Below are positions 7,519 through 60,932 of a stretch of DNA of 64,000 nucleotides, piece after piece; the stretch's first letter is position 1, and every line of letters starts with the position of its first letter. The position numbers and the translations under genes were made by a program. This DNA comes from Alphaproteobacteria bacterium. GTDB taxonomy: Bacteria; Pseudomonadota; Alphaproteobacteria; Rhizobiales; Rhizobiaceae. The DNA lies in contig BOKV01000012.1 in NCBI GenBank assembly GCA_016861165.1, positions 21,401 through 85,400 on the forward strand, written 5' to 3'. The notes beneath the pieces were generated by a model. The model was not told where the DNA came from. It saw nothing but the letters and a program-made list of their open reading frames with translations, and did no database searches.

Positions 7519-7710
7519 ATGTTCGACGAGGAAACCCCGCCGGCGCGCCAGCCTGGATACATGATCGGCCAGAAGCTCGATGCCATGTCGGTGGCCGAGA
7601 TCAACCAGACCATCGACCGGCTCAGGGCCGAGATCGAGCGGCTAGAGCGGGCCCGCGAGGCCAAGTCCGGCCACATGGCTGCCGCCGAGGCGCTTTTCTC
7701 GAAGAAATAG
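7519..7710 (+). CDS. DUF1192-family small coiled-coil protein
   Basis: MFDEETPP...MSVAEINQTIDRLRAEIERLERAREAK is typical of DUF1192. A GGGAGG Shine-Dalgarno lies 8 nt upstream of the ATG at 7519. Confidence 0.75.
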   Translation: MFDEETPPARQPGYMIGQKLDAMSVAEINQTIDRLRAEIERLERAREAKSGHMAAAEALFSKK

Positions 7711-7740
7711 CCCGGCAGCGCCGCCGAGCCCGCTTTGGCG

Positions 7741-7755
7741 TTAACCTTCGGTTAA
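7741..7755. promoter_or_regulatory. Full-consensus CtrA box TTAA-N7-TTAA (TTAACCTTCGGTTAA)
   Basis: Read directly. It lies in the DUF1192-rcdA intergenic region, about 25 nt upstream of a TATTAA -10-like hexamer at 7767..7772. Confidence 0.45.
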
Positions 7756-7779
7756 GCTTTATGGGGTATTAAGGAATCG

Positions 7780-7879
7780 ATCCAGTTTTGCTGGATTCAC
7801 TCCGGGTGGCCCCTGTCCACCCTGTTTGACGCCTCCCTGTTAACTCTTCAGAGCCGCGTTTCGCGGCTCTTTTTTTTTC
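7780..7879 (+). ncRNA. Candidate trans-acting sRNA of about 100 nt; the 5' end is inferred
   Basis: Hairpin ATCCAG/CTGGAT at 7780..7796. Hairpin GGGTGG/CCACCC at 7804..7822. Unpaired CCUCCC anti-Shine-Dalgarno motif at 7832..7837. Intrinsic terminator at 7851..7879. No coding potential. Confidence 0.5.
7851..7879 (+). terminator. Rho-independent terminator (GAGCCGCG-TTT-CGCGGCTC followed by a run of 9 T)
   Basis: An 8-bp GC-rich stem followed by a T-run, read directly. Confidence 0.85.
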
Positions 7880-8035
7880 CCCGCGCCTGGTCCGGGGCGG
7901 CGGCGGGGCTAACCATGTTGCCAGATTCCAGTGCCTTTCCGGCAGCTTCGCCGGTCAAAAGGCCGGTGCGGCCGCGCCCGGCACTTTACCGGATTGGCGG
8001 GCGGCGATAGAACAGGCGCGCGAGCAGGGACGAGC

Positions 8036-8596
8036 ATGAACAGCGAGCACAACAAGAGAGGCGGCAAGGCCATCCAGATACCGGAAGCAGGCCAGACCGT
8101 GAACCTTTCCGAGCGGTTCGCGCTGTCCGGGCGCTTCAAGCAGCTCTTCGCCGACGGCATGAGCCTGGTTGAGCAAAGCGCCAACTATCTCGACGGTCCG
8201 GGCCGCCAGGCGGCCAGGGAACTGTCGCGCCAGGCCGCGCTCATCTACGGCACCGAATCGATGCGGCTGACGACGCGACTGATGCAGCTCGCCTCATGGC
8301 TGCTGCTCCAGCGCGCCGCCAATGAGGGCGAACTGACCCGCGACCAGGTGATCGAGGAAAAGAAGAAGGTCAGACTCGAGACGCTGCCCCGGTCGGCGGA
8401 CGGCCAGGGCTGGGACGCGCTGCCACCGGCATTTGTCGAACTGGTCACGCGTTCGCTGACCCTGCAGAACCGCATCCTGACGCTCGACCAGGAAATCTAC
8501 GGCATCCGCGAGGCGGGGCCCGAGGCCAACGAAAACCCGGTCGACCAGCAGATCAACCTGCTGTCGACGGCGCTGGGCGCCATGCGCAAGGATTAG
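8036..8596 (+). CDS. rcdA: RcdA (regulator of CtrA degradation, DUF1465 family)
   Basis: Matching stretch: YLDGPGRQAARELSRQAALIYGTESMRLTTRLMQLASWLLLQRA. ATG at 8036; the listed ORF start at 7931 adds non-homologous residues. Confidence 0.75.
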   Translation: MNSEHNKRGGKAIQIPEAGQTVNLSERFALSGRFKQLFADGMSLVEQSANYLDGPGRQAARELSRQAALIYGTESMRLTTRLMQLASWLLLQRAANEGELTRDQVIEEKKKVRLETLPRSADGQGWDALPPAFVELVTRSLTLQNRILTLDQEIYGIREAGPEANENPVDQQINLLSTALGAMRKD

Positions 8597-60054: not shown

Positions 60055-60070
60055 TTAAGCCACCCTTAAC
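60055..60070. promoter_or_regulatory. Full-consensus CtrA box TTAAGCCACCCTTAAC (TTAA-N7-TTAAC)
   Basis: Read directly, 74 nt upstream of the first porin-family ATG. A third TTAA lies 9 nt further upstream. Confidence 0.45.
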
Positions 60071-60143: not shown

Positions 60144-60932
60144 ATGGGACATTTCAGGCGGGTTTCCATAGCCGTCGCGCTCGTCGCCTTGTCGGCGCCG
60201 GCGGCGCTTGGCGCCGATATCATCGAATACCAGCCGCCCGAGGTCGTGCCGCAGTCCTATGGCGGCTGGTACCTGCGCGGCGATATCGGCATGAGCAACC
60301 AGCAGCTCCATGGCGGGCTGGAGAACGCGCTGTTTCCGACCGTGGACAATCTCGAGTTCCTCGATTCGGGGTCGTTTTCCAGCGCGCCGACCTTCCGCGC
60401 CGGCATCGGCTACCAGTTCAACAACTGGTTCCGCGCCGACGTGACGGCGGAGCTGCGCGGCAAGTCCGACTTCGCGGCGCTCGACCGCTACGAGGGCGTC
60501 GATGACGGCAACCCGCTGACCTGGGACGGCTCCAACGACTACTCGGCCAAGAAGAAGGAATGGCTGTTCATGGCCAACGGCTATGTCGACCTCGGCACCT
60601 ATGGCGGGGTCACGCCCTATGTCGGCGCCGGCATCGGCATGAGCCAGAACAAGATCTACAGCTTCCGCGACGTCAACGTGCCCAATCTTGGCGTGGCCTA
60701 CGCGCCGACCGGCACGAAATGGAACATGGCCTGGGCGCTGCATGCCGGCCTCGGCTTCGACGTGACCGACCGGCTGACGCTCGACCTCGGCTACTCCTAT
60801 GTCGACCTGGGCGATGCGCAGAGCGGCGACATCGTCACCTTCAACGGCACCAACAATGTCAACAATCCGATGATCTTCAAGGACATCGTCTCGCACGACC
60901 TCAAGTTCGGCCTGCGCTACAGGTTCAACTAG
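60144..60932 (+). CDS. Outer-membrane beta-barrel protein, Omp25/Omp31/RopB family
   Basis: Signal peptide ending ALGA. GWYLRGDIGMS, NWFRADVTAELRG, C-terminal [19 protein letters not shown] Shine-Dalgarno. Confidence 0.9.
   Translation: MGHFRRVSIAVALVALSAPAALGADIIEYQPPEVVPQSYGGWYLRGDIGMSNQQLHGGLENALFPTVDNLEFLDSGSFSSAPTFRAGIGYQFNNWFRADVTAELRGKSDFAALDRYEGVDDGNPLTWDGSNDYSAKKKEWLFMANGYVDLGTYGGVTPYVGAGIGMSQNKIYSFRDVNVPNLGVAYAPTGTKWNMAWALHAGLGFDVTDRLTLDLGYSYVDLGDAQSGDIVTFNGTNNVNNPMIFKDIVSHDLKFGLRYRFN

Follow-up and report, generated by a model that had tools for sequence, protein, structure and literature searches.

A known alphaproteobacterial small RNA encoded upstream of rcdA and its conserved, putatively CtrA-dependent promoter

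Between a DUF1192 gene and rcdA, the 64-kb window (the whole stretch of DNA analyzed here) encodes a new member of a small RNA (sRNA) family that is itself already known, as BjrC1505, as SmelC671 or sm84 in S. meliloti, and as ReC71 in R. etli, and the best explanation of our observations, one that we hold to be probable, is that this RNA, encoded at 7779-7878 of the plus strand, acts in trans and is transcribed under the control of CtrA. CtrA acts as master regulator of the cell cycle in alphaproteobacteria and is turned off in rhizobia as they become bacteroids, and the product of rcdA, a CtrA-proteolysis adaptor, governs its breakdown. In the mechanism we propose, phosphorylated CtrA would bind a box at 7741-7755 and recruit RNA polymerase, taking the place of a -35 element, in conjunction with a TATTAA -10 hexamer; transcription would begin near 7780, a start that we infer, and would stop at an intrinsic terminator, yielding an RNA of approximately 100 nt; the invariant single strand of this RNA, UGUUUGACGCCUCCCUGUUAAC, would most likely pair with the ribosome-binding regions of target mRNAs, an anti-Shine-Dalgarno mode suggested by the invariant and unpaired CCUCCC strand; and the level of the RNA would track CtrA activity, which is high toward the end of the cell cycle and low upon CtrA degradation. 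The RNA having been described before, the promoter is possibly the new part of the finding, and with the sRNA the cell-cycle circuit would probably have an RNA output that has so far been overlooked. The features of the locus are as follows.

7519..7710, plus strand: DUF1192 gene, the upstream neighbor (Pfam PF06698, 61.5 bits)
7741..7755, plus strand: putative CtrA-type box TTAACCTTCGGTTAA (TTAA-N7-TTAA), read from the sequence, overlapping the -35 position of the sRNA promoter
7767..7772, plus strand: -10-like hexamer TATTAA, 11 nt past the box, part of a TATTA(A/C) column block kept in alignments
7779..7878, plus strand: predicted sRNA of the BjrC1505/SmelC671 family, about 100 nt, its start predicted and its end set by the T-run
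7780..7796, plus strand: hairpin 1, ATCCAG (7780-7785) with CTGGAT (7791-7796), from sequence, fold and covariation
7804..7822, plus strand: hairpin 2, GGGTGG (7804-7809) with CCACCC (7817-7822), loop CCCCTGT, from sequence, fold and covariation
7823..7849, plus strand: single-stranded seed TGTTTGACGCCTCCCTGTTAACTCTTC, nearly invariant across the family
7832-7837, plus strand: anti-Shine-Dalgarno motif CCTCCC within the seed, unpaired in both the minimum free energy (MFE) and the centroid folds
7850..7878, plus strand: intrinsic terminator, AGAGCCGCG (7850-7858) with CGCGGCTCT (7862-7870), loop TTT, followed by 9 T, from a terminator scan
7984..8013, plus strand: likely promoter of rcdA itself, CTTTAC, about 16 nt, then GATAGAAC, a motif pair recurrent in same-genus loci
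8036..8596, plus strand: rcdA (DUF1465 family), the downstream neighbor (Pfam PF07323, 179.6 bits)

The DUF1192 gene and the sRNA are co-oriented, with 30 nt between the stop of the former (7710) and the box; farther out lie a quinone oxidoreductase gene in the opposite orientation, upstream, and a convergent rpmE (L31), downstream. The initial annotation, made from the letters of the DNA, had reported the perfect CtrA box with the TATTAA hexamer at 7767, two hairpins, an unpaired CCUCCC motif, a strong terminator, and a stretch devoid of coding potential. All of these are indeed present, and the sRNA stretch contains neither an ATG nor a conserved reading frame; one detail needs to be corrected, as the GC-rich stem of the terminator, followed by nine T that end at 7878, counts nine pairs, seven of them G-C, and not eight. 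Words of the GANTC type (CcrM methylation) flank hairpin 1 on both sides (GAATC at 7774-7778 and GATTC at 7794-7798); GANTC was considered as a conserved site and rejected, being found at the base of hairpin 1, on its 3' side, in only about one quarter of 139 loci, mostly those of a single clade. Between the terminator and rcdA, CTAACCAT (7908-7915) differs by one base from the CtrA half-site word TTAACCAT, and it is not kept in the same-genus loci.

As to the identity of the RNA, family membership is established by a scan against Rfam, a check that the initial annotation had proposed. Positions 7734-7876 of the plus strand match RF02356 (BjrC1505, “Alphaproteobacterial sRNA BjrC1505”) with 89.9 bits (E 1.2e-17), the cut-off for the family being 50 bits, over the full length of the model (positions 1-140), and no other sRNA family scores above threshold in the scan of this locus. 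The reading of the architecture as that of an sRNA was thus correct, while the family had gone unrecognized. The family is represented by a single copy per genome in 33 of the 41 relatives inspected, and its 19-nt core, UGUUUGACGCCUCCCUGUU, which is exact at 7823-7841, recurs letter for letter in at least 120 species, the named genomes among the matches listed ranging from Bradyrhizobium, Nitrobacter, Mesorhizobium, Brucella, Devosia, Hyphomicrobium, and Microvirga to Parvibaculum and Sneathiella. The best identity to the RcdA of the window, for the named loci among the matches listed, is 61%. Previous work has characterized several members of the family, with Northern blots showing the RNA in several species. 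In S. meliloti, SmelC671 (the same as Sm84) is a 100-nt trans-encoded RNA as determined by sequencing (2986421-2986520, plus strand), and sm84, located between SMc03988 and SMc03989 (the latter is rcdA), produced a Northern band of about 80 nt, its promoter being annotated as sigma-70 type. ReC71 is the relative in R. etli, and the family extends to Bradyrhizobiaceae and Methylobacteriaceae, with an RNA of the BjrC1505 family detected by Northern blot in M. extorquens. A 2020 review names nodule zone II as the sole site of SmelC671 expression and gives no promoter motif.

The structure of the RNA is established by folding and by covariation. The RNA from 7780 to 7878 folds into the two hairpins and the terminator with an MFE of -35.7 kcal/mol (z = -5.2; none of 200 shuffles folded as well), in which CGCCUCCCUGUUAACUCUUC is unpaired, as is the 3' part of the core, from 7830 on. 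Covariation of the hairpins in orthologous loci, another check proposed at the outset, was followed in an alignment of 55 non-redundant family members, where 95.5% of the cells in the hairpins and the terminator are paired, and compensatory, both-side changes occur in 16 of the 21 pairs; these values were reached by none of 500 shuffles, and controls slid along the alignment had no more than 63% of cells paired. Taken separately, hairpin 1 has both-side changes in five of its six pairs (95.7% of cells paired), hairpin 2 also in five of six (95.1%), and the terminator in six of nine. The helices that the Rfam model places at its 5' end (positions 1 to approximately 45, corresponding to 7734-7778 of the window) did not withstand the same analysis, with 44.6% of cells paired versus 44.8% in shuffles. 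Since this 5' third of the model lacks covariation and covers both the box and the -10 hexamer, it appears to be conserved as DNA. Judged by these patterns, about 45 nt of promoter DNA is included in the RF02356 model as if it were RNA, and hairpin 1 most likely marks the beginning of the transcript.

The box is rare by chance and strongly conserved in place. Its rarity, already pointed out in the initial annotation, is borne out by shuffles, with two occurrences of TTAA-N7-TTAA in the window versus 0.02 expected, and in the 3.49-Mb assembly 15 are observed versus approximately 1.4 expected. Its conservation and position are established by the comparison of loci. In 30 loci from relatives, the box occupies the same place, being perfect in 22 and carrying one mismatch in the rest. 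In the 114 named loci with enough upstream DNA, drawn from the at least 120 core-bearing genomes, a box with one mismatch at most is found in 110 (51 perfect, 59 with one mismatch), and all of these boxes but two are located 74-84 nt ahead of the core, against an expectation of 0.0023 per locus, these numbers referring to the matches listed. The one-mismatch variants are clade-specific, TTTAC-N6-TTAA in Bradyrhizobium and Stappia, and TTAAC-N6-TTAG in Hyphomicrobium-like lineages. A class-wide sample of 300 genomes produced 40 matches, 19 of them above the cut-off, and in these, which reach into other alphaproteobacterial orders, the hairpins have diverged, while box, core, and terminator are kept. 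Overall, the box is found at a constant distance ahead of the RNA in over 140 genomes. The TATTAA -10 was not called by a consensus promoter scan, as is expected for a promoter that lacks a TTGACA -35.

The geometry predicted for the promoter would point in the same direction. With a transcription start (+1) near 7780, which is placed by the distance of about 7 nt past TATTAA and by the 100 nt that separate it from the end of the T-run, as in the S. meliloti RNA, the box would start at -39. In the CtrA-activated promoters of Caulobacter, the full CtrA motif lies near -35, and at -39 in ctrA P2, and CtrA motifs have also been noted at six non-coding RNAs in this organism (Zhou et al., 2015). 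On the basis of motif conservation and geometry, the sRNA would depend on CtrA, and both binding and activation by CtrA are predicted.

The other 14 boxes in the assembly are essentially all intergenic, and the genes behind them include ftsK, a gene for a long PAS-HisKA kinase adjoining a phasin gene, an outer-membrane beta-barrel gene, two paralogous genes for FeeM-like acyltransferases (N-acyl amino acid synthases), and a DUF937 gene, a set in keeping with a CtrA regulon. The second box of the window (TTAAGCCACCCTTAA, 60055-60069) is located approximately 75 nt upstream of a gene for an Omp25/RopB-like beta-barrel (60144-60932, plus strand), with more TTAA words just ahead, and it is plausible, judging by the motif and its placement, that this gene is a second CtrA target. 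As to CtrA itself, no close ctrA homolog was found in the 37 contigs of the assembly, which is 88% complete, the best response-regulator match being 37% identical. The gene is present in all 12 near-complete relatives inspected, including those of the same genus, at about 84% identity to a Caulobacter probe sequence, so its absence here most likely reflects an assembly gap.

One alternative accepts the RNA as real and ascribes the TTAA-N7-TTAA element not to CtrA but to the A/T-rich sequence of a promoter for a housekeeping sigma factor, or to a site of the MucR or SciP type that shares CtrA promoters. The sigma-70 label that the S. meliloti promoter carries fits such a reading, as do the entire clades with TTTA or TTAG in one of the half-sites, and the second half-site reads TTAAG versus the canonical TTAAC. 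Against it, the N7 spacing is constant at virtually every locus, with conservation of the two half-sites as strong as that of the seed; the 20 nt that separate TTAACC from TATTAA are too long for a normal -35/-10 pair; the other boxes of this genome precede genes typical of a CtrA regulon; and in S. meliloti a CtrA ChIP peak falls into the equivalent intergenic region. We consider this alternative unlikely. In the literature we searched, there is no paper tying the BjrC1505/SmelC671 RNA to CtrA, the promoter being called sigma-70 type or left blank, and both the conserved CtrA-type promoter and the class-wide link to rcdA appear to be unreported.

Synteny with rcdA is established across the family. 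The gene is located downstream of the sRNA, in the same orientation, in 28 of 30 relatives and in 101 of 104 named loci among the matches listed, its start being a median of about 190 nt beyond the T-run. A different explanation would take advantage of precisely this arrangement: the promoter with the CtrA box would serve rcdA, the transcript would mainly be a cis-acting rcdA leader, the terminator would be an attenuator, with the degree of read-through determining how much rcdA is expressed, and the short RNA would be a by-product, which could coexist with a role in trans. The control of the Caulobacter rcdA by CtrA, from multiple promoters, agrees with this explanation as well. The terminator is strong, however (a 9-bp stem with seven G-C pairs and nine U), and no alternative antiterminator pairing is seen. 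The spacer between the terminator and rcdA is also poorly conserved and carries promoter-like elements of its own or a second CtrA box. The CTTTAC...GATAGAAC pair recurs in the same-genus loci and is likely, by its resemblance to a -35/-10 pair, the promoter of rcdA itself in this genus, and a second perfect CtrA box is present in the spacer in 18 of 135 loci, all of the Rhizobiaceae, Phyllobacteriaceae, and Brucella group. Given the separate promoter pair in this genus and the second box in a minority of loci, the predicted CtrA input into rcdA appears to vary by lineage, while that predicted for the sRNA does not. (Loci at which these spacer elements, the separate promoter pair or the second box, were noted include L028, L036, L041, L069, L074, and others.) Moreover, an invariant single strand of 19-22 nt is left unexplained by attenuation.

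Data from S. meliloti are also at odds with the leader explanation. In this species, the second CtrA motif is at 2986559-2986573, and rcdA has separate start sites, from 2986607 on, downstream of the sRNA. A CtrA ChIP-seq peak has been reported there for the “rcdA promoter,” with rcdA expression unchanged on CtrA depletion (Pini et al., 2015). As two boxes are present in this intergenic region, some 170 bp from each other, the published peak is not assignable to the box of the sRNA, and a CtrA-driven sRNA would be one way to read the result. Overall, we regard the leader explanation as improbable. The claim of the initial annotation that the box more likely drives a short, terminated transcript than rcdA gains support, from the family match, from covariation, from the fixed distance of the box, and from the promoter-like element that rcdA has for itself.

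A third possibility, that the RNA is a processed 3'-UTR fragment of the DUF1192 mRNA with no promoter of its own, draws on the shared orientation and the short distance between the two and on the lack of any plus-strand terminator between the DUF1192 stop and the sRNA, or anywhere before 7850, and is nevertheless very improbable. No more than 61 of 107 named loci among the matches listed have DUF1192 ahead of the sRNA, the box, the RNA, and the near-constant rcdA persisting in the others, which argues against a 3'-UTR origin, and the conserved box and -10 hexamer are positioned exactly upstream of hairpin 1.

The prediction of targets with the CCUCCC strand, as suggested in the initial annotation, has not delivered: no conserved mRNA target was found through pairing with start regions, through complements in the genome, or through a check of orthologs. 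When the 19-nt core was paired with the rcdA start regions of 128 loci, rcdA did not emerge as a specific target, the median of -15.0 kcal/mol corresponding to the 44th percentile of the 3144 start regions in the genome of the window. The neighboring DUF1192 gene gives the same pairing value as rcdA, and the rcdA of the window ranks 515 out of 3144. We therefore reject rcdA as a base-pairing target, its pairing being like that of DUF1192 and in the middle of the genome distribution; of the circuit with rcdA that the initial annotation had suggested, the near-universal synteny stands, and a specific pairing to the rcdA start region does not. The candidacy of ctrA was likewise rejected: its start regions, taken from three relatives, pair with the core at -9.9 to -11.5 kcal/mol, whereas the median for the genome is stronger, at -14.4. 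The best mRNA-like match in the genome is a perfect 12-nt complement in a class II aldolase-like gene, where it spans the ribosome-binding site; this complement is not kept in eight orthologs and is thus probably due to chance.

The longest perfect complement of the seed in the assembly measures 15 nt (GTTAACAGGGAGGCG) and is intergenic, on another contig (C1), where it belongs to the following candidate.

Contig C1, about 208181-208044 (locus L154:882-745), minus strand: candidate partner RNA unit of about 138 nt, in the interval that separates a PAS-like gene from a rhomboid-family (rhomboid-protease) gene, upstream of the latter

This unit is unannotated and has no match in Rfam, and it possesses a sigma-70-like promoter and a terminator of its own. 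The site complementary to the seed is largely unpaired in its predicted fold. The unit is found across the genus, and in the two nearest species the body of the RNA cannot be aligned except for CGTTAACAGGG, an 11-column island of identity that is lengthened by differing complementary flanks, GAAGA and CGTC; in one species whose seed reads GUAUAAC, the unit has the exact complement, GUUAUAC. The expectation for a 15-mer seed complement by chance is about 0.1, GTTAAC is a palindrome similar to a CtrA half-site, and most members of the genus keep the hexamer only. By complementarity, the unit may be a partner or a sponge RNA, which we offer as a lead and not as a finding.

How does this locus compare with known systems? 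With regard to BjrC1505, SmelC671, and ReC71, it shares with them both hairpins, the invariant CCUCCC single strand, the terminator, and the site upstream of rcdA, and no structural difference is seen, the locus in the window being a member from an uncultured lineage. MmgR/suhB (RF00519, alpha-r8) is similar in its 3' half, with a CCUCCCU motif ahead of a comparable terminator, but it differs in the 5' hairpins and in the genomic context, and membership in that family was rejected (28 bits versus a cut-off of 41). The promoter, in its predicted geometry, is like those activated by CtrA in Caulobacter, such as ctrA P2, having the full TTAA-N7-TTAA motif with the 5' base near -39/-35; unlike in that class, the product here is an sRNA, the host is a Rhizobiales-type bacterium, and both the start and the CtrA site are predicted.

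The most suggestive comparison is with CcnA of Caulobacter crescentus. We tentatively put forward the idea, more doubtful than probable as it stands, that the BjrC1505 family may be the Rhizobiales counterpart of CcnA, that is, a CtrA-activated riboregulator spread across several orders and tied to rcdA, which would feed CtrA activity into the circuit of the cell cycle and proteolysis, and which in this genus may have a dedicated RNA partner in the 138-nt unit. No sequence relationship between the sRNA of the window and CcnA was detected. The CcnA gene is located at the replication origin, in contrast to the position between DUF1192 and rcdA, and CcnA pairs with the 5' UTRs of ctrA and gcrA, whereas pairing of the core described here with ctrA is below the background in the three relatives. 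If CtrA does drive this sRNA, from Sneathiella and Parvibaculum to Bradyrhizobium, Brucella, and Mesorhizobium, then the sRNA would constitute a post-transcriptional arm of the circuit, the presence of CtrA on the “rcdA promoter” of S. meliloti with no regulation of rcdA could be accounted for, and the RF02356 model would be shown to contain promoter DNA. The authors of the CcnA work did not clearly detect a CcnA-like RNA in S. meliloti, and for such a CcnA-like function, which they did not locate in Rhizobiales, the family would then offer a concrete candidate. What the two RNAs have in common is that both are non-coding, both are presumably activated by CtrA, and both carry a C-rich motif, which acts on ribosome-binding regions in the case of CcnA and would do so here.
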